64,000 nt of DNA, taken from contig CAZSSJ010000001.1 of assembly GCA_964609775.1 (NCBI GenBank), forward strand, positions 22,858 to 86,857, in the 5' to 3' direction. This DNA comes from an uncultured Gammaproteobacteria bacterium. GTDB taxonomy: Bacteria > Patescibacteriota > Microgenomatia > JAMCZE01. The stretch's first letter is position 1; the number at the start of each line of letters is the position of its first letter. Positions 36,358-60,036 of this stretch are shown one piece after another. The position numbers and the translations under genes are program-made. Under the pieces are notes generated by a model. The model did no database searches. It worked only from the letters and a program-made list of their open reading frames with translations, and was not told the origin of the DNA.

Positions 36358-37566
36358 ATGCAAGCCTTAATTGAAACCTACCATCGTTTACTTTCGGAAA
36401 TAGTACCGTCCTACTGGCGCCGGTTCTATGACGAGTTTGTCATGGATAGCCGGATGGTCGGCATTGTTGGGGCAAGAGGGGTGGGAAAGACCACGTTTCT
36501 TGTTAGCTATCTGCGGGAACACTACGGCGGTTCGGACAGGTCACTCTACGTCTCGGCGGACAACCTCTATTTTGTGGAGCATACTTTGATTGAAGTGGCG
36601 GATCAATTTGTCAAGGACTTCGCCGGGGAGATTTTGTGCATTGACGAGATTCACCGCTATAGGAATTGGAATCAGGAACTGAAAAATATTTACGACTCCT
36701 ACCCTAAACTGTCAGTAATATTTTCAGGGAGTTCGAGTGTTGATCTGGTGAAAGGGAAGTATGATCTATCCCGCCGGGCTAACTTGAAAACGATGTATGG
36801 CTTTTCCTTCCGGGAATATCTGGAGGTTTGGGAGAAAGCTAAATACCCGATTCTGACGCTGGCGGAAATTCGCACTAATCACACGATGTATGCTCAGGAA
36901 TTAATGAAGACGCCAAAAATCCTTGGTTATCTGAAACAGTATCTTAAGGGAGGTTACTACCCGACGTTTTTGGAAATGGGGAGCTACGGCGCCTATCAAA
37001 GCAGCCTGCGGGGGATTATTGACAAGATTATCTTTGAAGATATCAGTAGTTTTTATTCTTTAAATACCTCTAATTTGGACACTCTTAAGAAGATAATTTA
37101 TTTCTTTGGGACTGCCCAGCCCGGGACTGTTAACATCAACCGCCTGGCCGGAAGTTTAAAGAAGGACTATACCACAATTGCGGAGTATGTGCAGATTTTA
37201 AGAGATACCGGACTTCTTCGTTTTCTCCGGCGGAACAAACAAGGCCATGCTTTAGTGCGGGATGCAGAAAAGATTTATCTGGACAATCCGAATCTCCTTT
37301 ACGCTGTTAATCAGGAGGTAGGGAAGGAGCCACTGGTTGGAGTTTCGCGGGAGCTCTTTGTGATTGGCAGTTTGGAAAACGCAGACTACCACGTGTTTTT
37401 TTCTGAGGCGGCGGACGTTGAATGCGACGGGCACCTTTTTGAGATTGGGGGGAAGAACAAAACCGCCTCGCAGTTGAAAGGGAAAGAAGGATATTTAATT
37501 AGTGATGATGTCCTTGTTGGCGACTCCAGAACCATTCCCCTTTATTTGTTTGGGTTTTTGTCTTAA
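36358..37566 (+). CDS. AAA_14/DUF4143-family ATPase (second copy)
   Basis: 402 aa. Walker A GARGVGKTT, Walker B ILCIDEIH, DUF4143-like C-terminus. Confidence 0.75.
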   Translation: MQALIETYHRLLSEIVPSYWRRFYDEFVMDSRMVGIVGARGVGKTTFLVSYLREHYGGSDRSLYVSADNLYFVEHTLIEVADQFVKDFAGEILCIDEIHRYRNWNQELKNIYDSYPKLSVIFSGSSSVDLVKGKYDLSRRANLKTMYGFSFREYLEVWEKAKYPILTLAEIRTNHTMYAQELMKTPKILGYLKQYLKGGYYPTFLEMGSYGAYQSSLRGIIDKIIFEDISSFYSLNTSNLDTLKKIIYFFGTAQPGTVNINRLAGSLKKDYTTIAEYVQILRDTGLLRFLRRNKQGHALVRDAEKIYLDNPNLLYAVNQEVGKEPLVGVSRELFVIGSLENADYHVFFSEAADVECDGHLFEIGGKNKTASQLKGKEGYLISDDVLVGDSRTIPLYLFGFLS

Positions 37567-37621: not shown

Positions 37622-37670
37622 GGGAAATGAAAATGTTCCATGAGTTGCGATCGCGTTTTATGGAACAAAA
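37622..37670. repeat. Palindromic element copy 1 (GGGAAATG..ATGTTCCATG..GCGATCGC..TTATGGAACA)
   Basis: The 8-bp arms TGTTCCAT and ATGGAACA flank a central GCGATCGC. Lies between two convergent gene ends. Confidence 0.8.
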
Positions 37671-37736: not shown

Positions 37737-38414
37737 TTATTTTAGGATTTGGGGTCTTAAGCTTCGGGCGAGGGATTCATAGAATTTCTCCATGGCTTTT
37801 TGGTCAAAGGGGACGAGCATTTTGGGAAGATTCGTTATTTCCGCGGCCTTGAGGAAGCTTTGGGCCGTTTTAATAGTGTCTGTGGTGACGACGAATTTTT
37901 GGTCAGCACTGGTGAGGAGATCGGCTGCTGTCCAGTTTGTTTCTTTGATAATTAAGTAGAGGTCGACGTAATCTCGTTCACGGGCTTTGGTGCGGATCGT
38001 GTGGATCTTGTTGACGGCAATGTCGTAGAGGCTATCAATTTCGAGGCCGCGCCACCTGATTCCCGGTTTTAGACGGTTGAAGGAGTAGTGGTTAAAGTCG
38101 ACCTTGAAACGGCTGTTGTCAGGGTAGCGGAAGAAATATGTGTAGAAACCAAGGTCGTCATCGACGCTAACGTGACGGTATTCGAGGATACTTTGATTCC
38201 TTTTGATCCATTCAGTAACACGGTCGCCATTAAAGGAGCGATCGGTGAAGAAATCCAAATCGTAGGATTCCCGGTGGTGGAGGTACCAGCTGGCCAGACC
38301 GGTGCCGCCGCTTAAGTAGAAGTTATCGAGGAGATATTTTTCCTGAAGTACCAGGTCCAGAAATTGCTTCTGTCGAAGGCTAAGTCCTTCTCCTTGCGCC
38401 AGGGTTTGTTCCAT
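37737..38414 (-). CDS. Nucleotidyltransferase AbiEii/AbiGii-toxin-like protein (copy 1)
   Basis: FYLSGGTGLASWYLHHRESYDLDFF NTase motif. Paralog of 39317-39991. Confidence 0.6.
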   Translation of the reverse strand: MEQTLAQGEGLSLRQKQFLDLVLQEKYLLDNFYLSGGTGLASWYLHHRESYDLDFFTDRSFNGDRVTEWIKRNQSILEYRHVSVDDDLGFYTYFFRYPDNSRFKVDFNHYSFNRLKPGIRWRGLEIDSLYDIAVNKIHTIRTKARERDYVDLYLIIKETNWTAADLLTSADQKFVVTTDTIKTAQSFLKAAEITNLPKMLVPFDQKAMEKFYESLARSLRPQILK

Positions 38415-38608
38415 AGGTAGAATTCTAGCACCTTTTTCTTGTCAGGATTGAGACGATCTTTGATTTTGAACCAGGCTTTCCGGAGCTCCTTTTCCTCGAT
38501 TTTTTCGCCCTCAAGGCCATAGTTTATACGCTGGACCAAGCGCCAGAGTTTATATTCTTTAGGATGGTTTTTTTTTAAGGCTTCCTCGTCAGTGTTCCAA
38601 TTGATCAT
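38312..38608 (-). CDS. Small partner protein of AbiEii-like copy 1 (possible antitoxin)
   Basis: MINWNTDEEALKK..YKLWRLVQRINYGLEGEK is a paralog of 39123-39389. Overlaps the NTase ORF by 103 nt. TATAAT-N7-ATG. Confidence 0.55.
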   Translation of the reverse strand: MINWNTDEEALKKNHPKEYKLWRLVQRINYGLEGEKIEEKELRKAWFKIKDRLNPDKKKVLEFYLWNKPWRKEKDLAFDRSNFWTWYFRKNISSITST

Positions 38609-38719
38609 TAAATAGATTATACCTCTTAAGGAAAAGCGGGGAGGGAGGGGCGGATTTGGCAGGAAGGTTGTCGCAGCAATCTGCCGTGTGGCAGTCTGTC
38701 GGCCCAGGGAAAGAGAGCT

Positions 38720-39004
38720 TCAGGTTGCTATGATGGTTGATTTGCGACCAAAGTCGTCTTGCCAGATTTTGAGTTTTTGCCCTTTCGGATAGTGTGTCGT
38801 CACATCATTTCTTGAGTCTGGATATAGTTGGCTGACATTAAATCCTTCGCCTGGTGCCAGGGAAATGATTTCAAGTGGACTTTGTGCATCGGAAGATAAT
38901 TCCCACTTTTTTTCTCCTTGAGACAGTTCCCGGGGAAAACGGAATTTGGGTAACAGGCCTCCTTCTGGATGCCAAAAATTGTCATACTCTATCTTACAGG
39001 TCAT
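38720..39004 (-). CDS. Small hypothetical protein A (94 aa) behind the shared promoter module
   Basis: ATG lies 6 nt after the GAGAAT of the module. No family recognised. Confidence 0.5.
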   Translation of the reverse strand: MTCKIEYDNFWHPEGGLLPKFRFPRELSQGEKKWELSSDAQSPLEIISLAPGEGFNVSQLYPDSRNDVTTHYPKGQKLKIWQDDFGRKSTIIAT

Positions 39005-39039
39005 AGCCTTATTCTCTCTCTCTCTGCTTAATTTGTCAA
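39005..39039 (-). promoter_or_regulatory. Shared promoter module, copy A: TTGACA-N17[(GA)n]-GAGAAT-N6-ATG
   Basis: Minus strand reads TTGACAAATTAAGCAGAGAGAGAGAGAATAAGGCTATG. Confidence 0.6.
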
Positions 39040-39122
39040 GCTACGCTTGACAAAACCAGCCCCGGCGTTTTTTGTCGAGTTTGGGAGGGGCGGGTGAGCC
39101 TGATTTATGGTAAAATATGCTT

Positions 39123-39389
39123 ATGCTTAACTGGTCCACTGACGAAAAAGCCTTCAAGAAAAAAGACCCTAAGGGCTACAAATTGTGGAGGTTAACTCAG
39201 CTCATAAACTTCGGTCTTGACGGGGAAAAACTGTCGGAAAAAGAAGTCAGAAAAGCCTGGCCGAAGATCAAGGACAGGCTCGATCCCTACAAGGGCCGTT
39301 TGCTGGAGTTTCTTATATGGGGAAAACAATACTCACTCCCAAACAATATCAGTTTCTGGAACTGGCCGCTGCCGACCCAAAAATCGTAG
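39123..39389 (+). CDS. Small partner protein of AbiEii-like copy 2
   Basis: MLNWSTDEKAFKK..YKLWRLTQLINFGLDGEK. TAAAAT (39111-39116)-N6-ATG at 39123; the track ORF starts at 39117. Confidence 0.55.
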   Translation: MLNWSTDEKAFKKKDPKGYKLWRLTQLINFGLDGEKLSEKEVRKAWPKIKDRLDPYKGRLLEFLIWGKQYSLPNNISFWNWPLPTQKS

Positions 39390-39991
39390 CGAATTTCTAT
39401 CTCACTGGCGGCACGGCTCTGTCAGAATTTTATCTCCACCACCGCCTCTCTGAAGACATCGATCTTTTTTGCCCGAAAGAAGAAGTCGATCAAAAATTCG
39501 TAGAAATTTTCCTCAAAAAAATCTCACCAAAGATGGCAATCCAATATCTCCGCCCGACCGTATTCTTGGGTCTTGTCAGTTACAAATTGGTCTTCACGGA
39601 CAAAACAGAATTGAAAGTAGATTTTAACTATTACCCTTTCCTCCAAATCGATAGTGGTACCAAATTTAATAATCTGAGTGTCGACAGCCTTTATGATATT
39701 GCGGCAAACAAACTGCACACTCTTTTTATGAGACCACGATCGCGCGATTACGTGGATCTTTATTTTATTCTCCAGCAAGAAAATTATCCGTTAGAAAAGC
39801 TGATAATCGACGCCAAAATCAAGTTCGACTGGCACATTGATAACACGACTCTCGCCAGTCAATTCTCAAGAGTGCAAGATTTAGTTTCAACCGATTTACC
39901 AAAAATGCTCGTTCCTTTTGATCAAGAAAAGATGGAAAAATTTTTTCTTGATCTGGCGAAATCGCTCAAAGGAAAGATATTTAAAGAGTGA
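39317..39991 (+). CDS. Nucleotidyltransferase AbiEii/AbiGii-toxin-like protein (copy 2)
   Basis: FYLTGGTALSEFYLHHRLSEDIDLF. Overlaps the partner ORF by 73 nt. Confidence 0.6.
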   Translation: MGKTILTPKQYQFLELAAADPKIVANFYLTGGTALSEFYLHHRLSEDIDLFCPKEEVDQKFVEIFLKKISPKMAIQYLRPTVFLGLVSYKLVFTDKTELKVDFNYYPFLQIDSGTKFNNLSVDSLYDIAANKLHTLFMRPRSRDYVDLYFILQQENYPLEKLIIDAKIKFDWHIDNTTLASQFSRVQDLVSTDLPKMLVPFDQEKMEKFFLDLAKSLKGKIFKE

Positions 39992-40045
39992 GCAGGGTTG
40001 GGGCAAATTGCTTCGGAAAGCAGGGGCAGGTGGCTGACAGACACC

Positions 40046-40291
40046 TTAATAATTATCAAGAATTTTTTTGGCCTTTATTTTTCGTTTTTCTGCTTCTGGA
40101 CTGATTTTTAATTTTTGGTCGAATGGCGCTTTTTGGTAGTAGGGATGGCTGTATTTTGGAGTTTTGCTAAATTTCTCTGGCACGTTCTTCCAGCCACATG
40201 TAAGAAGTACTCTCGTCGCTGGACGCGGTTTGATTGGTTTTATTAAGTGAAGAGATTGTTCAGACACCCCTTCAGACACCCCTTCAGACAC
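40046..40291 (-). CDS. Small hypothetical protein B (81 aa), GTG start, N-terminal (SEGV)n from a 12-bp tandem repeat
   Basis: GAGAAT-N6-GTG. An ATG 2 nt upstream opens only a 16-codon frame. No family recognised. Confidence 0.35.
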   Translation of the reverse strand: MSEGVSEGVSEQSLHLIKPIKPRPATRVLLTCGWKNVPEKFSKTPKYSHPYYQKAPFDQKLKISPEAEKRKIKAKKILDNY

Positions 40292-40336
40292 ATGTTTATT
40301 CTCTCTCTCTCTCTCTCTCTCTGCTTAATTTGTCAA
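40292..40336 (-). promoter_or_regulatory. Shared promoter module, copy B: spacer 27 nt, (TC)11 on the plus strand
   Basis: TTGACAAATTAAGC + long (AG)n + GAGAAT. Confidence 0.5.
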
Positions 40337-40375
40337 GTTGGGACTGGCTGGGAATCGGAGGAAGGAAATCGCATC

Positions 40376-40404
40376 TTGACATCATTGCATCTTGATGAGA
40401 AAAT
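40376..40404 (+). promoter_or_regulatory. vapBC promoter giving a leaderless mRNA
   Basis: TTGACA-N17-GAAAAT-N6-ATG(40411). Confidence 0.55.
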
Positions 40405-40410
40405 GTGGGT

Positions 40411-40665
40411 ATGAACACAGTCAGAACGACGATTTCGCTGGAGGCGGATTTACACCGGCAAGTTTTGGCACAGGCCAACAACCTGGGCTTGTCCATGAGC
40501 GAAGTTGTTAACAAGCGACTGATGAATCCTAACTTCGGGAAGAGCCGGGCCCAGATTGAGGAAAAAATTGCTGAGGACCGGCGCTTTTTCAGGCAGTTGT
40601 CTCACAAGGGAAGAAAAGTTGATTTAGTTAAGGCTTTGAGAGAGGACCGGGACCGTGACAGTTGA
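40411..40665 (+). CDS. vapB: RHH/CopG-type antitoxin
   Basis: MNTVRTTISLEADLHRQVLAQANNLGLSMSEVVNKRL. Directly precedes and overlaps a PIN gene. The track ORF starts at 40405. Confidence 0.7.
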   Translation: MNTVRTTISLEADLHRQVLAQANNLGLSMSEVVNKRLMNPNFGKSRAQIEEKIAEDRRFFRQLSHKGRKVDLVKALREDRDRDS

Positions 40666-41074
40666 CAGGTTTGTCATTGACGCCAGCGTGGTTTTGGAAT
40701 GGGTGGAAACGAAAGAGTCGCCTCAAAAACAGAGGGCGCTTGGTCTCTATGAGCGGCTGGTGAAAGGTGAGGTGGCTTTTTCGGCGCCTTCATTTCTTCT
40801 GGTTGAGGTCATTAATGTGCTTTATTGGAAGAAAAGAAACACGGTTGAGGAGATCAGAGACTTTGTTGACCGGGTCAAGACTTCGGGGATTAATTTTGTT
40901 GACGGCGCGTTTTCAGCTGACGCCAGTGATGAGCTTCTGGATGCAGTTGGAAAGCATGAGATTACAGCCTATGACGCACAGTATGTGATTCTGGCAAAGA
41001 AGCTGGGAGTGAAGCTCCTGACGTTTGATGAGAAGTTGTTGGGGATTAAAGAAGTGGGTGCGGGGGAATGGTAG
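40655..41074 (+). CDS. vapC: PIN-domain toxin
   Basis: FVIDASVVLEW ... ITAYDAQYVILAKKLGVKLLTFDEKL. Confidence 0.8.
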   Translation: MTVDRFVIDASVVLEWVETKESPQKQRALGLYERLVKGEVAFSAPSFLLVEVINVLYWKKRNTVEEIRDFVDRVKTSGINFVDGAFSADASDELLDAVGKHEITAYDAQYVILAKKLGVKLLTFDEKLLGIKEVGAGEW

Positions 41075-41080
41075 AGAGAC

Positions 41081-41473
41081 CTACCATATTTCCTGTGGTC
41101 CATATTCCTGGTCGAAATCTTTTTGAGCTAAGCGAACATATTTCTCTTCGGTAATCTGCCAAGAGGTGCCGTCTCCCTTTGGATCCCATTCGGTGCGTAA
41201 TAGAACAGTGTTTGGTGTGCGGGTTTTCCAGCGAGATTCGCGAATGTCCGGCCTTTTTGTTCGAACCGCTTCATCATATTCATCGTATTTTCGACCCGTT
41301 AGTCCTATTCTTTCTTGAGCTAATCGACGGCCTTCTTCAGTCCAAGGACGAAATTCAATTCTCCTTCCTTGTTGGCCAGGTCCAAAACCAAGATTTGGAT
41401 GGAGAAAATAATCAAGTTCTATTTTATCCTGCTCAAATAGAGCTTGTGTCTCCGGCGATTGATTTACGGACAT
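41081..41473 (-). CDS. Small hypothetical protein C (130 aa), intact paralog of G
   Basis: Shares EGRRLAQERIGLTGRKY and TPNTVLLRTEWDPKGD with 48494-48877. Its stop is 6 nt from the vapC stop. Confidence 0.6.
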   Translation of the reverse strand: MSVNQSPETQALFEQDKIELDYFLHPNLGFGPGQQGRRIEFRPWTEEGRRLAQERIGLTGRKYDEYDEAVRTKRPDIRESRWKTRTPNTVLLRTEWDPKGDGTSWQITEEKYVRLAQKDFDQEYGPQEIW

Positions 41474-41508
41474 GGCCTTATTCTCTCTCTCTCTTCCTAA
41501 AAAGTCAA
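41474..41508 (-). promoter_or_regulatory. Shared promoter module, copy C (TTGACT variant): spacer 17, N6, ATG
   Basis: TTGACTTTTTAGGAAGAGAGAGAGAGAATAAGGCCATG. Confidence 0.6.
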
Positions 41509-41597
41509 ATTTGGTTGGGCCGGAAAAGTGGTCGTGTCTTATTTATGCGATCGCATTTTTAAGAAGTCAGTTGGTTGATAAGAGAAGATAGGATAAA

Positions 41598-41626
41598 TTG
41601 ACATTATTAATTGATTCGACTATAAT
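41598..41626 (+). promoter_or_regulatory. Consensus promoter of the wHTH/NTase pair
   Basis: TTGACA-N17-TATAAT, then a leader with AAGAGG before the ATG at 41647. Confidence 0.6.
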
Positions 41627-41646
41627 CGAAAAGAGGCATAAAACAT

Positions 41647-42234
41647 ATGAAGAAAATCGAACTCATTTGGCGGGAGATTCTAGAGAACGGACAGAAAGAT
41701 CCCGTTTTTGAACAGAAGGAGCTGGCGTCAAGACTGGGATTGTCCACGAGCACGGTTTTTGCGGCGCTTGAGCCATTGAGAGCAATTGGAGCGGTAACGG
41801 TTGGCGGCCGGGGGTTTCGGTTGACTAATTTTTCCAAAGTGCTCTTCTTTTGGGCGACGCATCGAAATTTGGCCAAAGATATCGTTTACAAAACGAGGGT
41901 TGATCTGCCAATGGTCGAAATTGAGGGCCTGGTTGACAACGAAACGATTTACGGGGCATATAGTGCCGGCCGCAGGCTTCTGGGGCAGGCTCCGGCTGAC
42001 TATGACAAAGTCTATCTTTATGCCTCAAAAACAGACAATTTGATCAGGAGATTTCCGAGGGCGGGGGGGGCAGCCAACGTTTTTGTCCTGCAGGCTGATC
42101 CGGGCTTGCCGGCTTTTGGCAAAATGACCCCGGTGTCGCAGACGTTTGTTGATTTGTGGAATTTGCCGGACTGGTTTGCGCAGGATTTTTTGGAGGCTTT
42201 AAAGGAGAAATTTTATGGCGGATTATTATCATGA
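41647..42234 (+). CDS. Winged-HTH protein (AbiEi/MarR-like; candidate antitoxin or regulator)
   Basis: QKELASRLGLSTSTVFAALEPLRAIGAV HTH. Overlaps the downstream NTase-fold gene by 20 nt. Confidence 0.5.
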   Translation: MKKIELIWREILENGQKDPVFEQKELASRLGLSTSTVFAALEPLRAIGAVTVGGRGFRLTNFSKVLFFWATHRNLAKDIVYKTRVDLPMVEIEGLVDNETIYGAYSAGRRLLGQAPADYDKVYLYASKTDNLIRRFPRAGGAANVFVLQADPGLPAFGKMTPVSQTFVDLWNLPDWFAQDFLEALKEKFYGGLLS

Positions 42235-42826
42235 TTTAGTGACTGACAAGAGTTGGAAGACTTTGCAGGAACTTAAGAGCCAGGTGGATTTTGTGCTCAT
42301 CGGCGGGTGGGCGGTTTATTTATATACAAAAGCTTTGAAGTCGAAAGACATTGACATTATTGTCAATTTTGACCAACTGGACAGATTAAGGAGTCAATTT
42401 GAGGTCGTCAAAAATGAGCGGTTGAAGAAATATGAAGCGAGGCGCGAGGAAGTCCAGATTGATGTCTATTTGCCGCACTTCAGCGAAATTGGAGTGCCCA
42501 TTGAGGAGGTTGTCAAAAGGGTCGTTTCCCGGGAGACGTTTGTGGTTCCGGTGCCGGAGGCGCTTCTCATTTTGAAGCAGTTTATTTTGGGGCAGAGGGG
42601 GCTGTCGGCCAAGGGCCAAAAAGACCGACTGGACATCTTGTCGATCCTCCTTTCGGTTGAGGTGAACTTTAGGGAATATCGCAAATTAACGCAGGCGTGG
42701 GGCTTGACTTCTTTTCCTTCGGAGCTGGCGGAACTTGTTTCGACAACGGTCAGAATTCCGGAGCTATCGGTTGATGAGTATCAATGGTCGAAGGTGAAAA
42801 AGAAGGTTTTGAACTTGGTGGCTTAG
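42215..42826 (+). CDS. Nucleotidyltransferase-fold protein (candidate toxin partner)
   Basis: LIGGWAVYLY...SKDIDIIV matches the G[GS]-x-D.D minimal NTase motif. Confidence 0.5.
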   Translation: MADYYHDLVTDKSWKTLQELKSQVDFVLIGGWAVYLYTKALKSKDIDIIVNFDQLDRLRSQFEVVKNERLKKYEARREEVQIDVYLPHFSEIGVPIEEVVKRVVSRETFVVPVPEALLILKQFILGQRGLSAKGQKDRLDILSILLSVEVNFREYRKLTQAWGLTSFPSELAELVSTTVRIPELSVDEYQWSKVKKKVLNLVA

Positions 42827-42888
42827 CGTCGGGTTTTTAGTTGTCTCCCGTGTTTAGATTTGTGGTCCGAGAGCTTGAGAATATGACA

Positions 42889-43344
42889 TTAGTTTTGAGG
42901 TTGGAGCATTTTGATGAGACTGCCTAGTCTTGCTGCTTGATCTTCGCCGATCGTTGATGCAGTCTGGGCTGCACCGAGGAATTCTTCACGTAGAAATTGT
43001 CTTTCAGGGTTCCTTCCTAGGGCTACTGCGTCCTTTCCCTCTGCTGAGGCCGCGCTTTCGAGCCATTTTGCCTGGTCTATTTTCAGATAATTTATTGCTT
43101 TTTGCCTGGCAGCCGGGTCGTTGTTTTTTAATCCCGTGGCAATCTGTTCGATTACTGCGCGGCCAGCTTCGTACATGGCCCGGATTTCCCCTTGATCATC
43201 GCCCCAACCCTCGCCTGCTTTTTCAGCCGCCTCAAGCTCATGCTCAAAGTAGGTTATCGGATTAGCGTAGATTTCGTTCGATTCGGCTTCGTACCAATGA
43301 GGGAATCTGCCAGTTTGAGTTGTTTTTTCTGTTCTGTCAGCCAT
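42889..43344 (-). CDS. Small hypothetical protein D (151 aa from the ATG at 43344)
   Basis: GGAGGT lies 7 nt upstream of the ATG. The track ORF starts at a TTG at 43359. No family recognised. Confidence 0.5.
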   Translation of the reverse strand: MADRTEKTTQTGRFPHWYEAESNEIYANPITYFEHELEAAEKAGEGWGDDQGEIRAMYEAGRAVIEQIATGLKNNDPAARQKAINYLKIDQAKWLESAASAEGKDAVALGRNPERQFLREEFLGAAQTASTIGEDQAARLGSLIKMLQPQN

Positions 43345-43395
43345 TTGAATTACCTCCAAGGTCTATTGTCTCTCTCTCTCTTCCTAAAAAGTCAA
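43345..43395 (-). promoter_or_regulatory. Shared promoter module, copy D (TTGACT variant): spacer 19, -10 GACAAT, SD-containing leader
   Basis: TTGACTTTTTAGGAAGAGAGAGAGAGACAATAGACCTTGGAGGTAATTCAAATG. Confidence 0.55.
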
Positions 43396-43440
43396 ATTTT
43401 GGCTTTGCGTTTTGGCTACGAAGTTGATATACTCTGAGAA

Positions 43441-43716
43441 ATGCAAACTACGCTTCTTAACTACCGAATCATTGTTGAGCCCGACAGCCAAACTGGAACA
43501 GGCAAGCTTGGATACACAGCCTATGCACCCACCTTGGGAGTGGCTGATGATGGAAAGACAATTGAAGAGGCAATTAAAAATGTTCGGGGCGCAATTGAAG
43601 CATTTGTGGAAAGTTTGATCGTTGATGGGCAACCAGTGCCAACAGACCGAGTGGAGCAAGATCTTGTGGCGACGGCACAAATTTCGGTTAACGGCCCGGT
43701 TCAATTCGCTTTTTAA
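43441..43716 (+). CDS. hicB: HicB-family antitoxin
   Basis: YRIIVEPDSQTGTGKLGYTAYAPTLGVADDGKTIEEAIKNVRGAIEAFVESL. TATACT-N7-ATG. Confidence 0.75.
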   Translation: MQTTLLNYRIIVEPDSQTGTGKLGYTAYAPTLGVADDGKTIEEAIKNVRGAIEAFVESLIVDGQPVPTDRVEQDLVATAQISVNGPVQFAF

Positions 43717-43937
43717 TGCCTGAGATTCCTCAAATTAAACCTCGGAATGTGGAAAAAGTGCTACTGAAAAGAGGTTTTGTCGGCCGGACAACAAAAAGCA
43801 GTCATGTTGTTTTTGTTCATAAGGATGGCAGGCGCACAGTTGTTCCGGTTCACAATAAACCGGTGAGCACAGGAACTCTTCGGGCAATCCTTCGCCAGGC
43901 AAAGATTTCCGTGGAGGAGTTTTTGGAGGAAGTTTAA
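43716..43937 (+). CDS. hicA: HicA-family mRNA interferase toxin
   Basis: KPRNVEKVLLKRGFVGRTTKSSHVVFVHKDGRRTVVPVHNKPVSTGTLRAILRQAKI. Confidence 0.8.
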   Translation: MPEIPQIKPRNVEKVLLKRGFVGRTTKSSHVVFVHKDGRRTVVPVHNKPVSTGTLRAILRQAKISVEEFLEEV

Positions 43938-44374
43938 TTGGGAGATGGGGTTTCTGGTGGACTTGAGAACTTTTCTAGTTGTTTTGCTAGAGCCCTGAAA
44001 CCTGACAAAAACCATGTCTCGCCTTCATCCTCACTTTTTTTTGGTTCGAGACCGTACTCTTCAGACATTGCGTTGACAACTCCTGAGAAGTCGTTCAGGG
44101 TCTGAGCAGTTCTGAGGGCGTCTTGCCACAACTGTATACCTTGTTCCGCTGCCGCATACATTGCTGGGTCGTCTTGTGGATCTACACGGTTCCTGATTAT
44201 TAGCTCATTATTGAGTCTTGTTTGGGCGAGCAGAATTGCATCCTGCCGAGCTTTTCGGTCGGATACCGATTTTCCAACATATCTGTTTCTAAACTCAGCT
44301 GGTAGTCTGTTTTCCAGAACTGCCCAAGCTTTCCTGGGATTAAAGTTCTCTTCAACATTATTTTTTTCTGACAT
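43934..44374 (-). CDS. Small hypothetical protein E (146 aa)
   Basis: The ATG follows GAGAAT-N7. Its 3' end overlaps the hicA stop by 4 nt. No family recognised. Confidence 0.5.
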   Translation of the reverse strand: MSEKNNVEENFNPRKAWAVLENRLPAEFRNRYVGKSVSDRKARQDAILLAQTRLNNELIIRNRVDPQDDPAMYAAAEQGIQLWQDALRTAQTLNDFSGVVNAMSEEYGLEPKKSEDEGETWFLSGFRALAKQLEKFSSPPETPSPN

Positions 44375-44420
44375 TTGTTTTATTCTCTCTCTCTCTCTCT
44401 CTCTCTGCTTAATTTGTCAA
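44375..44420 (-). promoter_or_regulatory. Shared promoter module, copy E: spacer 27 nt, (TC)11
   Basis: TTGACAAATTAAGC + (AG)n + GAGAATAAAACAAATG. Confidence 0.5.
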
Positions 44421-44455
44421 GCTTGGACAATCCAGAATGGCCCAGGAGAATTTTA

Positions 44456-44496
44456 GGGAAAATGTTCGATGTTTTGTGATCGCGTTTTATGGAACA
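44456..44496. repeat. Palindromic element copy 2 (left arm and core each degenerate by one base)
   Basis: GGGAAAATGTTCGATGTTTTGTGATCGCGTTTTATGGAACA. Sits between the ruvB stop and module E. Confidence 0.75.
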
Positions 44497-44577
44497 AAAT
44501 GTTGGGTGGGAGAACGGCGTGGATTTTGTGTCAATCTGGACGAGAGGTTTCTTGGGGCAGTAGCAGTGGTGGGGATG

Positions 44578-45612
44578 TCAGAGAAGTTTTTCCTGGCCGG
44601 CACTGACTGGCGGGGTTTTGCCGAGGTGGAAATAGGCAGCCGGAGTGGTCATCCGGCCGCGGGGGGTACGTTTGACAAAACCGATCTGCATCAGATAGGG
44701 TTCGACAACTTCTTGAAGGGTGCCGATGTCTTCAGAAAGAGTGGCGGCAAGGGTTTCCAGGCCAACCGGGCCGCCACCGAATTTGTCGATGATGGCCAGG
44801 AGAAAGCGGCGGTCGGAGTCGTCGAGGCCCAGAGGATCAACTTCCAGAATGTCCAAAGCCCTGGTGAGCATTTCGGAGGTGACGGTGCCGGTGCCATGGA
44901 CTTGAGAATAGTCGCGGACCCGTTTCAGGAGCTTGAGGGCAATTCGGGGAGTGCCCCGGGCGCGCTTGGCCAGCTCCAGAGCAGCCCCTTGGGCAATGGG
45001 CAGATCAAGCTTCACCGCGGCTTTCTTAGCAATTTCCGTCAAGTCTTCCGGACTATAAAAAGAGAGCCGGTGGGTGATGCCGAAACGGTCGCGAAGAGGG
45101 GCGGAGATTAAGCCAATGCGGGTCGTGGCGCCGACGATGGTGATGTGGGGAAGTTCCAGGCGAAGGGTTCGGGCGGAGGGACCCTTACCCACGACAATGT
45201 CGAGGGCGAAGTCCTCCATGGCCGGATAGAGCGTCTCTTCAACAACTTTGCTCAGGCGGTGAATTTCGTCAATGAAAAGAATGTCGCCCGGTTCGAGATT
45301 GGTGAGGATTGAGGCCAGATCACCGGCCCGTTCGATGGCCGGTCCGGAGGTGACGCGAATGTTGGTGCCCATTTCCCGGGCAATTAAATGGGAAAGGGTG
45401 GTTTTTCCCAAGCCCGGAGGTCCGTAGAGCAGAGTGTGCTCCATGGGTTCGGAGCGTTTTTTGGCGGCGGAAAGGCCGATTTGAAGAGATTGCTTGACTT
45501 TCTCCTGGCCGATGAATTCATCCCAGGCGGCAGCCCGAAGGGAGTTGAAAAGTTTTTCCTCGTCGGGACTTTTTTCGCTGAGGTCTTTAGATCCTGGATC
45601 GGCTTTTTTCAT
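44578..45612 (-). CDS. ruvB: Holliday junction branch-migration ATPase RuvB
   Basis: [23 protein letters not shown], full-length RuvB-like sequence. Confidence 0.95.
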
Positions 45613-46181
45613 TTGAGTTTAGAGAGAGATTTTAAAGCAAAACGGATCTGGTCTTCAATGGCGATTGTTTCCGGGGGAAGGTTTTTGGTTGCTTGCCGGG
45701 CTTCGGAAGGTGAATAGCCCATGGATTCTAAAGCGTCGAGAAGTTCGGAAGTGGCGGAACCGCCCGTGAGATCGAGGTCGGAAAGGCTGCCCAGTTTGGA
45801 TTTTAATTCAATGATGATTTTCTGAGCGTTTTTTTTGCCCAGGCGGGGGACAAGGGTGAAGAAAGTCTCATCGGCTTTAATGATGGCCTGTTTAACCGGA
45901 TCAACACCTTTGTCCAGGACAAGGAGAGCGGTCCGTGGGCCAATCCCGGAGACACTAAGAAGCATTTTAAAGAGGTTTAAACCTTCGGTGTTTGGGAAGC
46001 CAAAGAGGTCAAGGGCGTCTTCGCGGACGTGGGTGTGAATGTGCAGGTCAAGCGGCTCGCCAAGGGAAAGCCTTGAGAGAATTGAGGAGGGAAGAAAGAC
46101 ATGATAGCCCACGCCGCCAACCAGAAGAGTGACAGAATCAAAGTTTTTTTGTTTAACCGAGCCTTGAAGAAAACTGATCAT
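45609..46181 (-). CDS. ruvA: Holliday junction DNA helicase subunit RuvA
   Basis: MISFLQGSV...GVGYHVF...[10 protein letters not shown]. Overlaps ruvB by 4 nt. Confidence 0.9.
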
Positions 46182-46274
46182 TGATTAATTTGAAATTTGA
46201 AATTTTAAATTTGAAATCAATTTTCAATTTAAAATGTTTCAATTTCAAAACCAGACATTTTTAAAACCCGTACA
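46182..46274. repeat. AT-rich TTTGAAA/TTCAAAT palindromic spacer (same family as 4909-5036)
   Basis: aatttgaaatttgaaattttaaatttgaaat faces attttcaatttaaaatgtttcaatttcaaaa. Confidence 0.8.
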
Positions 46275-46763
46275 TTATTTTTGAGCGAGGCGCATTTTGT
46301 AACTAAATGAATGAGTGATGGCGACGGCCAGAGCGTCGGCGGCGTCGTCGGGCCTCGGAACGGTCTTTAAATTCAGAACTGATTTTACCATCATTTGGAT
46401 CTGATATTTATCGGCCCGGCCGTAGCCTGTCAGAGCCTGTTTAATTTGAAGAGGGGTGTAGGAATGGAGAGACAGACTTTTGAGTTGGGCGCAGAGGAGA
46501 ACAATGCCGCGAGACTGGCCGACAGCCAGAGCGGTTTTGGCGTTGGCGGCAAAAAATAGCTCCTCGACAGCCAGGGTGTGGGGGTGATGGGTGGTGATGA
46601 GTTTTTCCAGAAAGCGAAAAATGATTTCCAGACGCTCCTCTTCGGGGAGGTGGGCGGCGGTTTCCTGACAGCCGAAATCGATGAGATCAAGCCTGCCTTG
46701 ATCATCTTTAATGAGCCCCCAACCGAGGCGGGCAAAACCGGGATCAATGCCCAAAATTTTCAT
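46275..46763 (-). CDS. ruvC: Crossover junction endodeoxyribonuclease RuvC
   Basis: MKILGIDPGFARLGWGLI..., RuvC length and motifs. Confidence 0.9.
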   Translation of the reverse strand: MKILGIDPGFARLGWGLIKDDQGRLDLIDFGCQETAAHLPEEERLEIIFRFLEKLITTHHPHTLAVEELFFAANAKTALAVGQSRGIVLLCAQLKSLSLHSYTPLQIKQALTGYGRADKYQIQMMVKSVLNLKTVPRPDDAADALAVAITHSFSYKMRLAQK

Positions 46764-46775
46764 AGGGCTATTATA
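46764..46775 (-). promoter_or_regulatory. Perfect -10 box placing the ruvC ATG at the predicted transcription start (leaderless)
   Basis: Minus strand reads TATAAT-agccct-ATG. No SD is possible in 6 nt. Confidence 0.45.
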
Positions 46776-46825
46776 TGTCAGTTTGCAGGAAAGACCGGGC
46801 GACGGGATGAAGCAGAAGAAGTGGC

Positions 46826-47104
46826 TTAAGTTTTTAAGCAGTTGGCGTTTTGCTGGAGGGTCCTCTCACTTATTCTTGAGATTGAAGATAGGCTAGCTCC
46901 CCCTTCCGTGCTGCCGAATCCCCCACAAGAGATTGCTTCAGGACTGGTTTCCTTAAATAGGGGGCAGCTTAGGCAGTATCTTCGGAACAGCTCTGACGGA
47001 CCGAAGAATTCAGGGTCTTCATAGGACACTATTAGCAGAAAGCCGGCATAGTCACTGGTCGGGGAGTATCGTATTGTTGCTTCAGGCTGCTCGACTTCTA
47101 ACAT
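46826..47104 (-). CDS. Small hypothetical protein F (92 aa)
   Basis: The ATG follows GAGAAT-N7 of the module. No family recognised. Confidence 0.45.
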   Translation of the reverse strand: MLEVEQPEATIRYSPTSDYAGFLLIVSYEDPEFFGPSELFRRYCLSCPLFKETSPEAISCGGFGSTEGGASLSSISRISERTLQQNANCLKT

Positions 47105-47140
47105 GGCCTTTATTCTCTCTCTCTCTGCTTAATTTGTCAA
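47105..47140 (-). promoter_or_regulatory. Shared promoter module, copy F: spacer 17, N7, ATG
   Basis: TTGACAAATTAAGCAGAGAGAGAGAGAATAAAGGCCATG. Confidence 0.6.
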
Positions 47141-47164
47141 GTTGGGACAGTTCAATGAGTCTTT

Positions 47165-47205
47165 GGGGAAATGTTCCATGGAATGCGATCGCGTTTTATG
47201 GAACA
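47165..47205. repeat. Palindromic element copy 3 (best-preserved)
   Basis: GGGGAAATGTTCCATGGAATGCGATCGCGTTTTATGGAACA, in the divergent region between gene F and fic. Confidence 0.8.
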
Positions 47206-47291
47206 GGGGGTTGATTTTTGACGGCAGTCAAAATTTGTATTGGGAACAAAATCTTATATAATCTAATATAGTCGCTATATGAGATTTAACT

Positions 47292-48365
47292 ATGGCTGAT
47301 ATTAATCGATTTGACCAGCGGCTGGAGAATTTGCCGTCAGGAATTTGGGCTAGGGTTGCCCGGATTGATGAGCTGAAGGGGAGGTTTGTGGCGGGAGCAG
47401 AGCTTGGGCCGCAAGCTTTAAAGGGGCTCCGAAGATCGGTTCTGGTGACTTCTTCCGGAGCCTCGACCCGGATTGAGGGAGCCAAACTTTCTGATGAGGA
47501 CGTGGAGAAAATGATGCGGGGCATTGATATTGTGAAGTTTGCTAACCGGGACAAACAAGAGGTCCAAGGCTACTTTGAGCTGTTACAAAATGTGTTTGCT
47601 TCCTGGGAGGATTTGAGTCTTTCAGAAGGAACGATCAAACATTTTCACCAAGAGCTTCTGAAGTACGTGGAGAAGGACAAGTTACATCGGGGAGAGTATA
47701 AGCACGACGAGAACAAAGTGGAAATGATCAACGAGGCAGGGGAGTCGGTTGGATTGTTGTTTGATACGACTCCAGCTTACCTTACACCAAAAGAAATGCT
47801 CGAGCTCGTGGAGTGGACACAAGGGGCACTTGAAGAGAAAAGATTCCACACCCTGCTCATTATTGGAAATTTCCTGGTGGAGTTTCTCAATATTCACCCG
47901 TTTACTGACGGAAACGGCCGTTTGTCACGGATCTTAACCAATGTGCTTCTTGTTAAGGCAGGCTACGCATTTATGCCTTATGTTTCACACGAGAAGCTTG
48001 TTGAGGGCAATAAGCCAGATTACTATCTGGCCTTAAGAAGTAGCCAGCGAACTTTTAAGGCACCCGGGGAGACGGTTGTTCCTTGGCTGGATTTCTTTCT
48101 CGCAGTTCTTCTTAAACAGGCGCAGACGGCAGTCGATTTACTCTCGGCGGCCACTATTGAACGGACGCTGTCAACAAAACAAATAGTTGTTTGGCAATAC
48201 CTTCAATCGAAGGAGGAGGCTACTCCGGGAGAGGTTGCCAGTCAAACGGGAGTGCCCCGGCCAACAGTTAATCAGGCCTTGGGTAAACTGGTGCGGCTCA
48301 AAATGGTTGAAAAGATTGGTTTGGGCCGGGCGACGAGATACCGGAAGCAAAGGCGAGAAATATAA
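47292..48365 (+). CDS. fic: Fic/DOC family protein with C-terminal wHTH
   Basis: Fic motif HPFTDGNGRLSR. C-terminal ...EVASQTGVPRPTVNQALGKLV. Confidence 0.85.
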   Translation: MADINRFDQRLENLPSGIWARVARIDELKGRFVAGAELGPQALKGLRRSVLVTSSGASTRIEGAKLSDEDVEKMMRGIDIVKFANRDKQEVQGYFELLQNVFASWEDLSLSEGTIKHFHQELLKYVEKDKLHRGEYKHDENKVEMINEAGESVGLLFDTTPAYLTPKEMLELVEWTQGALEEKRFHTLLIIGNFLVEFLNIHPFTDGNGRLSRILTNVLLVKAGYAFMPYVSHEKLVEGNKPDYYLALRSSQRTFKAPGETVVPWLDFFLAVLLKQAQTAVDLLSAATIERTLSTKQIVVWQYLQSKEEATPGEVASQTGVPRPTVNQALGKLVRLKMVEKIGLGRATRYRKQRREI

Positions 48366-48493
48366 TCCCCTCGTGTTAGACTGATTGGGGTTCGAGTTTT
48401 GAATGAAAGCTTGGGGTGAGGCTTCTGATTTTTGATGAGAAGTTGTTGGGGATTAGGGATGTGACTGTGGAGAAGCTCCCGGATTGATCAGAG

Positions 48494-48877
48494 CTATTTA
48501 GGTTCGTGGCGGGAATATTCTTCCTCGAAGTCTTCAGGTGGGAGCCGGACATATCTTTCTTCTTTCGTCGGCCAAGTGTCGTCTCCTTTTGGATCCCATT
48601 CTGTCCGTCGCAGGACCACGTTTGGGGTGCAGGTTTCCAGAACAGACTTGCGGGCGAGGCCAAATTCTTGGTCAAAAGTTACTTCCTGGTATTTTCGGCC
48701 GGTTAGACCTATTCTTTCTTGGGCAAGTTGACGCCCTTCCGAAGTGTGAGGAGTAAAGTCCACCCACTTGCCTGCTTGGGTAGGTCCAAGTCCTAGCTCG
48801 GCGGTTAGGAACTATTCCAGGCGACCTTTGTCGTCTTTAATTTGTTGTTCATTTCTTTCTTGAGAGATTGCAGACAT
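48494..48877 (-). pseudogene. Small gene G, paralog of C, interrupted by an in-frame TAG at 48812-48814
   Basis: From the ATG at 48877: MSAISQERNEQQIKDDKGRLE-stop-FLTAELGLGPTQAGKWVDFTPHTSEGRQLAQERIGLTGRKY... The stop aligns with the Tyr of ...IELDYFLHPNLGFGP in C. Confidence 0.6.
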
Positions 48878-48912
48878 GGCTTTATTCTCTCCCTCTCTTC
48901 CTAAAAAGTCAA
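48878..48912 (-). promoter_or_regulatory. Shared promoter module, copy G (TTGACT variant, interrupted GA tract): spacer 17, N6
   Basis: TTGACTTTTTAGGAAGAGAGGGAGAGAATAAAGCCATG. Confidence 0.55.
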
Positions 48913-48936
48913 ATTTGGACAGTCCGGGAGGGTTCT

Positions 48937-48976
48937 GGGGAAATGTTCAATGAAACGCGATCGCGAGTGTGGAACG
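48937..48976. repeat. Palindromic element copy 4 (degenerate)
   Basis: GGGGAAATGTTCAATGAAACGCGATCGCGAGTGTGGAACG. Confidence 0.7.
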
Positions 48977-49044
48977 ACTGTCGAACTTGGGTGGAGAGAT
49001 GAGAAAAGTGACACAAATTGCGCTAGTGTGAATTTTGTGTCAAT

Positions 49045-49140
49045 TTGGAGTGAGTTAATTTAACCGTATTGGGGTACGGATCTGGAGGGCCATCAGGTAG
49101 GTTGCTGCGACGACCTTCCTGAGGAGTGGTCTCAGGAGGG
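49045..49140 (+). pseudogene. Decayed LamG 3' remnant plus conserved hairpin
   Basis: About 80% identity by eye between 49098-49140 and 29505-29546, including tag-(a/g)ttg.tg...TTCCTGAGG.GTGGTCTC.GGA. The upstream gagttaatttaacc resembles gagtttaacc of the true gene end. Confidence 0.45.
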
Positions 49141-59026: not shown

Positions 59027-59344
59027 TTATCCCTTAGGTTTTATTTTGGGCTTCAGATTTGTATCTAAGTTGAGCTTTGAGAGAATTTCGTTTATGCCTT
59101 CGTCTCCTGGATGAAAATGTTTCCAACCATCATCTCGAGTGTATCCTCTCTCAGACCCGGTTCCGCGGCTTGCGAGTCTGATATAGAATACCGTTTCACT
59201 GTTGTCGTATAAAGTTAAACTGCCAGACCAGATTCCATCGCCACCGGCAAAAGCACGACTAGGATCAAGAGCAATCATATCTGCGTGGTTTAAAGAAACA
59301 GTTCTCACGATAGTTGGACGATCTTTTTGGTCTGGATCTTTCAT
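59027..59344 (-). CDS. Small hypothetical protein H (105 aa)
   Basis: The ATG follows GAGAAT-N7 of the module. Divergent from phd-relE. No family recognised. Confidence 0.5.
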   Translation of the reverse strand: MKDPDQKDRPTIVRTVSLNHADMIALDPSRAFAGGDGIWSGSLTLYDNSETVFYIRLASRGTGSERGYTRDDGWKHFHPGDEGINEILSKLNLDTNLKPKIKPKG

Positions 59345-59378
59345 TTCGCCTATTCTCTCTCTCTGCTTCTTTTGTCAA
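59345..59378 (-). promoter_or_regulatory. Shared promoter module, copy H: spacer 15, N7, ATG
   Basis: TTGACAAAAGAAGCAGAGAGAGAGAATAGGCGAAATG. Like copy A, it is followed upstream by the palindrome TTGTCAAGC-nnn-GCTTGACAA. Confidence 0.55.
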
Positions 59379-59468
59379 GCCCAGCTTGACAAAACTAGCC
59401 CTGGCGTTATTTGTCAAGTCCGGGCGGGCTGGAGATGGAGTGGCTGGAGATGGAGAGTAAATGCAATA

Positions 59469-59503: not shown

Positions 59504-59788
59504 ATGAATACGACGACTTTACCCCAAAATTTGACCGTGAGTCAGGCTCGTGCGAATCTTTATGATTTGATTGAAGAAGTGGGTTCGAAGTTGCGTCGAT
59601 TTGTCATTTCTCACAAGGGAAGGCCGACGGCGGTGGTGATGCCTGTGGAGGATTTGGAAAGTTGGGACGAAACGTTGGAGATTATGGCGAACAAGAAGTT
59701 GATGAGGTCTATTAAAAAGGCTCAAAGGGAATATGGGCGCGGTGAGGCAATTAGTTTTGAGGAAGTCAAGAAAAAATTGGGTATATGA
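59504..59788 (+). CDS. phd: Phd/YefM-family antitoxin
   Basis: LTVSQARANLYDLIEEVGSKLRRFVISHKGRPTAVVMPVEDLESWDETLEI. The track ORF opens at 59411. Confidence 0.8.
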   Translation: MNTTTLPQNLTVSQARANLYDLIEEVGSKLRRFVISHKGRPTAVVMPVEDLESWDETLEIMANKKLMRSIKKAQREYGRGEAISFEEVKKKLGI

Positions 59789-60036
59789 GACTTCAGTTTT
59801 CAAAAGATGCCCTAAAACAACTGGAAAAGATATCCCGAAACGAGGCTAAAAAGATTACCAGGAAACTGGAACAACTCGAAACTGAGCCCCTCGTTGGCAA
59901 GAAACTGGCTGGGGAGCTAGCCGATCAGTTTTCACTGCGAGCCTGGCCTTACAGAATCATTTATCAGGTTTATCCGAAAGCACAGACTGTGTTGATAATA
60001 CACATTGAGCATCGGCAGGGAGTTTACAAAAATTGA
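59785..60036 (+). CDS. relE: RelE/ParE-family toxin
   Basis: 83 aa. ...LRAWPYRIIYQVYPKAQTVLIIHIEHRQGVY. 4-nt overlap with phd. Confidence 0.8.
   Translation: MRLQFSKDALKQLEKISRNEAKKITRKLEQLETEPLVGKKLAGELADQFSLRAWPYRIIYQVYPKAQTVLIIHIEHRQGVYKN

Follow-up and report, generated by a model that had tools for sequence, protein, structure and literature searches.

A (GA)n-containing, promoter-like module precedes small ORFan genes, about half of which adjoin toxin-antitoxin operons, in Microgenomates

Introduction

Simple repeats act in phase-variable promoters: in Haemophilus influenzae the spacer of the divergent hifA/hifB promoters contains a (TA)n tract, and the vlp genes of Mycoplasma hyorhinis have conserved 5′ regions with a poly(A) spacer. 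Vibrio superintegrons are chromosomal integron cassette arrays that include toxin-antitoxin cassettes. Where toxin-antitoxin systems are tripartite, as in TAC (which has a SecB-like chaperone), paaR-paaA-parE and omega-epsilon-zeta, the third gene is co-transcribed, comes from a conserved family and is specific to the toxin-antitoxin family. Bacteria of the candidate phyla radiation have not been cultivated, and almost nothing is known of how they regulate genes, of their promoters or of their accessory genes. Here we describe an array of small genes in a 64,000-nucleotide stretch of contig CAZSSJ010000001.1 (positions 22,858 to 86,857, forward strand; the window in the following) from a Microgenomates genome. 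Each of the small genes starts at a common promoter-like module of about 45 nucleotides (nt) with an internal (GA)n tract, and most of them lie back-to-back with an operon of toxin-antitoxin type.

Like a phase-variable promoter, the module has a repeat between the presumed −35 and −10 boxes, the length of which differs between assemblies for four genes, and it is a near-identical promoter placed before many genes of a small host-dependent genome. It differs in that the repeat is (GA)n, the transcripts are predicted to be leaderless and the genes are unrelated cytoplasmic orphans (ORFans) instead of a surface-antigen family; in addition, the common tracts are short (5-6 units) and no length switching was observed in them. 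Vibrio superintegrons likewise combine small, mostly ORFan genes and toxin-antitoxin operons with a recurring sequence between them, but the array described here has neither IntI nor attC, its repeat is 5′ and promoter-like, its genes are on opposite strands and a housekeeping operon is located inside. As in tripartite systems, a third small gene stands beside a toxin-antitoxin pair, but this gene points the other way, has no relatives in the other units and assorts independently. Diverse small ORFans are also typical of phage morons and anti-CRISPR (acr-aca) loci, each with a strong conserved promoter and sometimes with an inverted-repeat operator; the array, however, has no phage context, no IMG/VR match and no adjacent conserved regulator gene. 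The clustering of AbiE, VapBC, HicAB, Fic and ParE together with a PDC-S01-like ATPase resembles that of defence or toxin-antitoxin islands, and we know of no such island for which regular interleaving with a promoter-defined ORFan class has been described.

Results

A common module precedes eight small genes

Eight small open reading frames (ORFs), A to H, were confirmed on the minus strand of the window, and each begins directly 3′ of the module. The small genes (product lengths in amino acids, aa) are:

38720-39004, minus: small gene A, 94 aa, ORFan without a Pfam, PADLOC or PHROG match; annotated frame best of six by codon usage
40046-40291, minus: small gene B, 81 aa, GTG start; the ATG of the module is out of frame
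41081-41473, minus: small gene C, 130 aa; sole homologue is the paralogue G
42889-43344, minus: small gene D, 151 aa, ORFan; 24-nt leader with a GGAGG Shine-Dalgarno box
43934-44374, minus: small gene E, 146 aa, ORFan; 4-nt overlap with the hicA stop
46826-47104, minus: small gene F, 92 aa; weakest coding signal of the eight
48494-48877, minus: small gene G, paralogue of C with an in-frame TAG; gene callers give an 89-aa product
59027-59344, minus: small gene H, 105 aa, ORFan

The corresponding modules are:

39005-39047, minus: module A, TTGACA, 17 nt including (GA)6, GAGAAT, 6 nt, ATG; promoter match 10 of 12
40292-40344, minus: module B, expanded (GA)11, spacer 27 nt
41474-41516, minus: module C, TTGACT-TTTTAGGAA variant, (GA)6
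43345-43403, minus: module D and leader
44375-44428, minus: module E, expanded (GA)11
47105-47148, minus: module F, with the upstream element motif2 (see below) at 47173-47204
48878-48975, minus: module G including motif2 (about 48945-48975), one A-to-G change within the GA tract
59345-59400, minus: module H, TTGACA-AAAGAAGCA-(GA)5

The module follows the pattern TTGAC(A/T)-N9-(GA)n-ATAAGGCC-ATG on the minus strand, and its fuller form is (GTCC)CAAC-TTGAC(A/T)-(AATTAAGCA or TTTTAGGAA)-(GA)n-ATAA(A)GGCC-ATG. A scan with the promoter consensus reads modules A, C, F and G as TTGACA or TTGACT, 17 nt and GAGAAT, with scores of 9-10 of 12, and GAGAAT is found in 29 of 35 non-redundant modules. A 17-nt spacer and a −10 box that ends 6-7 nt before the start codon agree with promoter geometry, for which 16-18 nt between the −35 and −10 boxes is usual; in 15 of the 35 copies the spacer measures 15 nt and falls outside this range. 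Between the −10 box and the ATG there are 6-7 nt in 24 of the 35 modules and 20-28 nt in seven, a bimodal distribution; all seven of the latter have a purine-rich Shine-Dalgarno-like box, for example GGAGG.

GAGAAT located 6-7 nt ahead of the ATG is at the distance expected between a −10 box and the transcription start, and the mRNAs would thus begin at the start codon. Besides the bimodal distance, this leaderless reading is supported by the leader of D, which has its GGAGG at the right distance, and by other first genes with the same geometry: −10-N6/7-ATG without a (GA) tract is present at ruvC (TATAAT), vapB, phd, hicB and both AbiE partner genes. The module is probably a sigma-70-type promoter from which most transcripts start leaderless, whereas for a minority of copies the message would have a leader of 20-28 nt that includes a box of Shine-Dalgarno type.

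The (GA)n tract varies in length

The (GA)n tract is located inside the spacer between the −35 and −10 boxes. Five units correspond to a spacer of 15 nt (15 copies), six to 17 nt (13 copies) and seven to 19 nt (two copies); expanded tracts of 11-13 units result in 27-31 nt spacers in four copies, including B and E. The number of units differs for the same gene in different samples. For B, 11 and 10 units were found, for E 11 and 12, for a gene in Candidatus Shapirobacteria (loci L018/L046/L050) 6, 7 and 6, and for the gene at the recF locus of the window's own genome (L025/L027/L044/L054) 13, 12, 14 and 14. Differences between assemblies were seen for these four genes, mostly in long tracts. 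The tract would set the distance between the −35 and −10 boxes; slippage would change this distance and tune the gene, and expansion would probably silence it. Tuning or silencing of genes by tract-length change is plausible on this pattern.

Since the ORF of B is out of frame with the ATG of its module and the tract is expanded to (GA)11, B may be inactive. Its start region (40255-40291) consists of a 12-nt tandem repeat, GTGTCTGAAGGG, present about three times and encoding SEGV repeats; the GTG of the 81-aa ORF lies 2 nt past the ATG of the module.

The small genes encode unrelated ORFans

With the exception of a few degenerate cases, every module is followed by a short ORF encoding 45-161 aa. 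Among the 36 distinct products, only two pairs are related, C/G and the proteins of loci L010/L029. None matches Pfam, PADLOC or PHROGs. Only self or paralogue matches were obtained for C and E among 5.8 billion proteins, and D matched only itself among 1.84 billion representatives (HMMER search); outside its own population, none of the three has a homologue. P0009 was rejected as a homologue of D, being an FN3-repeat protein with a score inflated by nine weak repeat matches. AlphaFold models have low confidence (pLDDT 40 for C; pLDDT 55 for E, which is helical).

In shuffled sequence, the chance of an ORF of at least 80 codons following a fixed start is approximately 0.02. The annotated frame is the best of six by codon usage in seven of the eight small genes, the exception being F. 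Values for pN/pS are 0.32/0.67 (C versus G) and 0.27/0.73 (L010 versus L029). The GC content at third codon positions is 0.32-0.49 in the small genes, below that of most toxin-antitoxin genes of the window (0.40-0.62). Frame, length and substitution pattern identify the small ORFs as genuine genes that evolve under purifying selection, and their predicted products are diverse cytoplasmic ORFans, one per cassette.

Explaining F as a leader ORF for ruvCAB is unnecessary, as ruvC has its own TATAAT-N6-ATG. G contains an in-frame TAG at 48812-48814, 21 codons past the ATG of the module, and only the 89-aa remainder, which starts at a GTG, is annotated. G is thus probably a copy in decay.

Six small genes are divergent from plus-strand operons

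A sequence-only reading of the window had reported six small genes divergent from plus-strand operons, and Pfam domains confirm these operons as AbiE-like (facing A), VapBC (B), wHTH+NTase (C; winged helix-turn-helix protein and nucleotidyltransferase), HicBA (D), Fic (F) and Phd-ParE (H). E and G are indeed without a divergent partner, and ruvCAB is located between E and F. The operons are:

39117-39991, plus: 90-aa partner gene and AbiEii-like nucleotidyltransferase 2 (AbiEii at 39317-39991; Pfam PF08843, E=1.9e-19), divergent from A
37737-38608, minus: 98-aa partner gene and AbiEii-like nucleotidyltransferase 1 (AbiEii at 37737-38414; PF08843, E=1.6e-15), downstream of A on the same strand
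40411-41074, plus: vapB (ribbon-helix-helix type) and vapC (PIN at 40655-41074, Pfam E=1.4e-11), with its own predicted leaderless promoter TTGACA-17-GAAAAT-6-ATG
41647-42826, plus: AbiE-like operon of wHTH (195 aa, 41647-42234) and nucleotidyltransferase (203 aa, 42215-42826)
43441-43937, plus: hicB-hicA (Pfam HicA E=5.6e-16; HicB-like E=9.8e-5)
44578-46763, minus: ruvC-ruvA-ruvB housekeeping operon inside the array
47292-48365, plus: Fic-domain protein with C-terminal wHTH, single gene (Pfam Fic E=2.5e-14)
59504-60036, plus: phd-parE/relE (Pfam Phd and ParE/RelE), predicted leaderless promoter TTGACA-17-TACGAT-6-ATG

In the plus-strand AbiE operon a TAAAAT ends 6 nt ahead of an ATG, and a perfect TTGACA-17-TATAAT promoter sequence precedes the wHTH+NTase operon at 41598-41626. 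Both AbiEii copies, PIN, HicA/HicB and ParE/Phd pass the Pfam cut-offs. The match of the nucleotidyltransferase at 42215-42826 is weak (DUF6036 22.6 versus a cut-off of 23.6; PADLOC AbiEii E=0.0045). The term toxin-antitoxin-type operon, which had been used for all six, is appropriate for the AbiE-like, VapBC, HicBA and Phd-ParE operons and generous for Fic, a single gene without an antitoxin gene. The operons had also been described as converging on the next small gene with almost no gap. This is the case at two of five junctions, where vapC and C are separated by 6 nt and hicA and E overlap by 4 nt; the remaining gaps are 54, 62 and 128 nt.

All toxin-antitoxin-type operons in the annotated part of the window adjoin a module gene. 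The same arrangement is found essentially unchanged in many assemblies of this population, for example on contig MFJK01000007.1 of assembly GCA_001780905.1 (Candidatus Gottesmanbacteria, Microgenomates, candidate phyla radiation, from the Rifle aquifer; locus tags A2721_). The strong positive GC skew throughout indicates that the plus strand is the leading strand, which places all eight module genes on the lagging strand. Of the seven toxin-antitoxin-type operons, six run in the direction of replication, and only the inverted AbiE copy at 37737-38608 (minus) runs against it.

The partner genes of the two AbiEii-like nucleotidyltransferases (38312-38608, minus, and 39117-39389, plus) are paralogues of 90-98 aa that belong to no Pfam family and differ from the wHTH antitoxin AbiEi that is usual in such systems; their 3′ ends extend 73-103 nt past the annotated starts of AbiEii. 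These small partners may represent an undescribed type of antitoxin for AbiEii.

The association with toxin-antitoxin operons recurs at other loci

Shuffling the eight module genes, seven toxin-antitoxin units and 30 other units gave at least six pairs on the given side at a frequency of 4.5e-5. Outside the window, the upstream-side neighbour is a PIN toxin-antitoxin operon for nine of 24 informative modules. Six of these are divergent (L008, L010, L021, L026, L035 and the second module of L053) and three are in tandem (L020, L029 and the second module of L025); in addition, an antitoxin relic (L011) and an RnlA-like gene (L016) were found. As controls served 83 ORFs of 90-400 aa from the same loci, all separated from the nearest module by more than 1.5 kb, and PIN was found for at most one of them. 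PIN operons are thus enriched approximately 50-fold next to modules (odds ratio 49, Fisher p=3e-6), and the enrichment remains in the other genomes alone (p=1.3e-5). The pairing recurs at three other loci of the window's genome and in other metagenome-assembled genomes, and the sequence-only reading was right in taking it to exceed chance clustering.

About half of the modules adjoin genes other than toxin-antitoxin genes. Such neighbours are recF, hrcA-grpE-dnaK, pth, ppiB, membrane proteins and four-helix-bundle (23S rRNA IVP) genes, and modules without a toxin-antitoxin operon include E, G, L007, L012, L025a and L051. At L025, in the same genome, a gene for a 139-aa retropepsin-like aspartyl protease (PF13975, PF13650; 6389-6805, plus) is divergent from a (GA)13 module.

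Small genes and toxin-antitoxin operons assort independently

One vapBC subfamily comprises members from the window, L035, L053b, L021 and L057/L058. The first four each have a module and a different, unrelated small gene. A search from the toxin side with vapC gave four homologues, all on very short contigs, of which L057 was informative: P0004, the closest relative (55% identity), has a divergent neighbour without a module. The same exchange is seen from the side of the small genes. C faces wHTH+NTase, but there is no such partner opposite its paralogue G; L010 and L029 encode homologous small proteins that adjoin different PIN operons in different orientations. Conversely, L010 and L011 have a homologous antitoxin and different small genes. 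The third gene is therefore not a conserved family that co-varies with a toxin-antitoxin family. Related toxin-antitoxin operons pair with unrelated small genes and vice versa, which argues against three-part systems; the three-component architecture proposed in the earlier reading falls by the outcome that this reading had itself named as refuting, independent assortment in related genomes.

The module also occurs in other groundwater Microgenomates

At least 14 copies of the module are present in the window's genome, to which exact-sequence look-ups assign L025/L027/L054, L053/L055 and L028/L045. Pattern scans of representative metagenome-assembled genomes, a set that did not contain the window's own genome, identified the module in six stretches from four genomes, and 40 further stretches with the module came from metagenomes. 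Of these, L018/L046/L050 are assigned to Candidatus Shapirobacteria; the module thus extends beyond Gottesmanbacteria to other groundwater Microgenomates. It is absent from 2.9 million viral contigs (IMG/VR, two patterns), and a phage origin was rejected as neither pattern gave a match. A known RNA family or a tRNA-linked island was rejected as well, with no tRNA and no Rfam family at the locus. We found no description of the module or of its pairing with toxin-antitoxin operons in candidate phyla radiation bacteria in the searchable literature.

An inverted repeat is located upstream of several modules

Upstream of some modules we found a second element, motif2, an inverted repeat GTTCCAT-N18-ATGGAAC around GCGATCGC. 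At E, F and G the distance from motif2 to the −35 box downstream of it is 20-45 nt; the element is partial at C and is also present at L053, another locus of the same genome. In addition to the copies at F and G listed above, the window contains:

44458-44495, minus: motif2 upstream of module E
about 41540-41560, minus: partial motif2 at module C
37629-37666, minus: orphan motif2 without an intact module

The differences between the half-sites are non-compensatory, which gives motif2 the look of a protein-binding site rather than of an RNA hairpin. An RNA hairpin was rejected because half-site changes are not compensatory across the five copies (by inspection). Motif2 looks like an operator, and as such would be a putative site for a common regulator.

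The palindrome GCGATCGC, which resembles cyanobacterial HIP1, occurs six times in the window (11913, 21210, 37647, 41547, 47185 and 48957), and four of the six are motif2 cores. At E and G, the units without a partner, a 22-nt conserved box, GTGRATTTTGTGTCAATYTGGA (91% identical; 44519-44540 and 49028-49049), is located beyond motif2, which suggests a long-form regulatory region of about 150 nt. Module A has a different palindrome, TTGTCAAGC-N3-GCTTGACAA, which overlaps the −35 box, and module H has a palindrome of the same type. L011 shares part of the upstream sequence of the A/H type without the palindrome.

The array shows signs of growth by duplication

The G unit retains a relic of a toxin gene:

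48407-48470, plus: vapC 3′-end relic of 64 nt, 81% identical to 41000-41063

The homology of the G unit to the C unit continues past this relic through the small gene and the module to the GCGATCGC core of motif2. At least one duplication thus copied the toxin end, the convergent junction and everything up to the promoter region, a sign that the array has grown as units were duplicated locally. On either side of A, the two AbiE operons are paralogues in inverted orientation.

No recombinase or integrase was found among the Pfam-annotated genes within 10 kb on either side of the array (approximately 27-70 kb of the source contig). A recurrent 3′ element, such as attC-type repeats at cassette 3′ ends, was not found either; the recurring module abuts the ATG at the 5′ end. 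The cassette array suggested by the earlier reading can be kept in a loose sense, as cassettes or accessory slots. An integron-type array does not fit, since there is no integrase, the 5′ repeat reads as a promoter and ruvCAB is embedded.

A 33-nt inverted repeat (27 of 33 positions complementary; 38660-38692 and 49089-49121) brackets the array from A to G including ruvCAB. Its first 23 nt fit a degenerate pattern that was reached in none of 100 shuffles; it was seen in this population only, and its right arm forms a hairpin about 75 nt past a GH26 gene. To the left of the array, an ATPase of the AAA_14/DUF4143 type (36358-37566, plus) matches the PADLOC candidate defence family PDC-S01 (E=3e-29), and a similar ATPase is located near the vapBC-module pair of L008. 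Two giant ORFs of 5325 and 2038 aa (5946-28067, plus) fill a third of the window.

Discussion

With somewhat better than even confidence, we take the shared module to be a promoter cassette outside any toxin-antitoxin system, and its pairing with toxin-antitoxin operons to be co-residence and not a functional trio. Each cassette would drive a different small ORFan protein, and toxin-antitoxin operons with predicted leaderless promoters of their own lie back-to-back with approximately half of the cassettes. A streamlined genome has few permissive intergenic slots, and two kinds of self-contained accessory units would share them. The pattern would be reinforced by local segmental duplication, and retention of the neighbourhood by the toxin-antitoxin operons may add to it.

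Several points weigh against this reading. The 15-nt spacer is short for a sigma-70 promoter, and the assignment of the −35 box or the sigma factor may therefore differ. Promoter spacers are normally not conserved; the conservation of AAGCA(GA)n suggests an additional role. Start sites and promoter strength are inferred from the sequence alone. The short tracts (n=5-6) at the window locus are invariant among six assemblies, so switching may be slow. The control set for the PIN enrichment was restricted to ORFs of 90-400 aa, and PIN counts below two are not itemised. Finally, isolated slots hold exactly one small gene and one divergent toxin-antitoxin operon (the leuS-comEA slot in the window, the rpsT slot of L008 and the rnhA slot of L010), and for such one-pair slots joint insertion is more parsimonious than co-residence.

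Joint insertion is the core of the alternative that survives best, although we regard it as unlikely: small gene, module and divergent toxin-antitoxin operon would be mobile two-unit cassettes that insert and duplicate together, with the operon stabilising the pair and the module serving as the recombination junction at which the halves are reshuffled, on an integron-like platform. Such cassettes would explain the single-pair slots, among them H with phd-parE between leuS and comEA, the common orientation of all array units and the C/G duplication, in which vapC end, small gene, module and motif2 moved together. That related toxin-antitoxin operons meet unrelated small genes exactly at the module, and that the 33-nt inverted repeat flanks the array, would also be accounted for. 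However, the 10 kb to each side contain neither an integrase or transposase gene nor att-like repeats, approximately half of the modules have no adjoining toxin-antitoxin operon, and the operons at L020, L029 and the second module of L025 are in tandem rather than divergent. The position of ruvCAB inside the array, the absence of the module from the viral contigs and the lack of presence/absence polymorphism among the assemblies of the window's population likewise speak against mobility. A bolder version is a long shot in our view: an undescribed gene-capture system of Microgenomates, in which the (GA)n module is both expression and recombination junction, ORFans are plugged in behind a repeat-switchable leaderless promoter and kept in the genome by the toxin-antitoxin operon at their back, and the module is the point where halves are swapped, as a functional analogue of integrons without an integrase.

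The clustering might also be a coincidence of a local accessory island, without a general link between module and toxin-antitoxin operons. The AAA_14/PDC-S01 ATPase, three AbiE-like operons and Fic do give the region the look of a defence or accessory island, where clustering alone favours adjacency, but the recurrence of the association at other loci and, significantly, in the other genomes alone makes this hard to credit.

Very improbable, too, is an outward-firing promoter whose product matters as RNA, with transcripts that pass the small ORF without a terminator and run antisense into the convergent toxin gene, damping the toxin. The tight convergent ends of vapC/C and hicA/E fit such a function. 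Also in its favour, terminator-like sites between 37500 and 49200 are not clearly enriched (24 versus 16.3 expected from shuffles), and of the convergent junctions only vapC/C has one, a weak hairpin. However, the ORFs are under purifying selection and far longer than expected by chance, the isolated pairs converge on the housekeeping genes leuS, rpsT and rnhA, and the other convergent gaps are 54-128 nt wide.

True three-component systems, in which the small protein would regulate, chaperone or trigger the toxin-antitoxin pair next to it, could draw on the enriched adjacency and the back-to-back shared promoter regions (−35 boxes 9-35 nt apart in the vapBC cases), but they are largely refuted by independent assortment, by small proteins of no common family and without a known third component among them, by one toxin-antitoxin subfamily with different small partners or none, by small-protein families with different partners (C versus G, L010 versus L029), by the partner-less E and G and by modules beside recF, hrcA, pth and ppiB, and we see scarcely any chance for them.

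For the candidate phyla radiation, a 45-nt cassette that is conserved across classes of Microgenomates and present at least 14 times in one genome of about 1 Mb offers a testable handle on transcription and leaderless translation. Small, fast-evolving proteins that pass for noise in annotation pipelines are grouped by the module into a regulon-like class, and its tract suggests simple-sequence-repeat contingency switching outside host-associated pathogens. The approximately 50-fold enrichment raises the question of whether toxin-antitoxin systems stabilise novel small genes or travel with them. If they do either, this would bear on how new genes are retained in minimal genomes.

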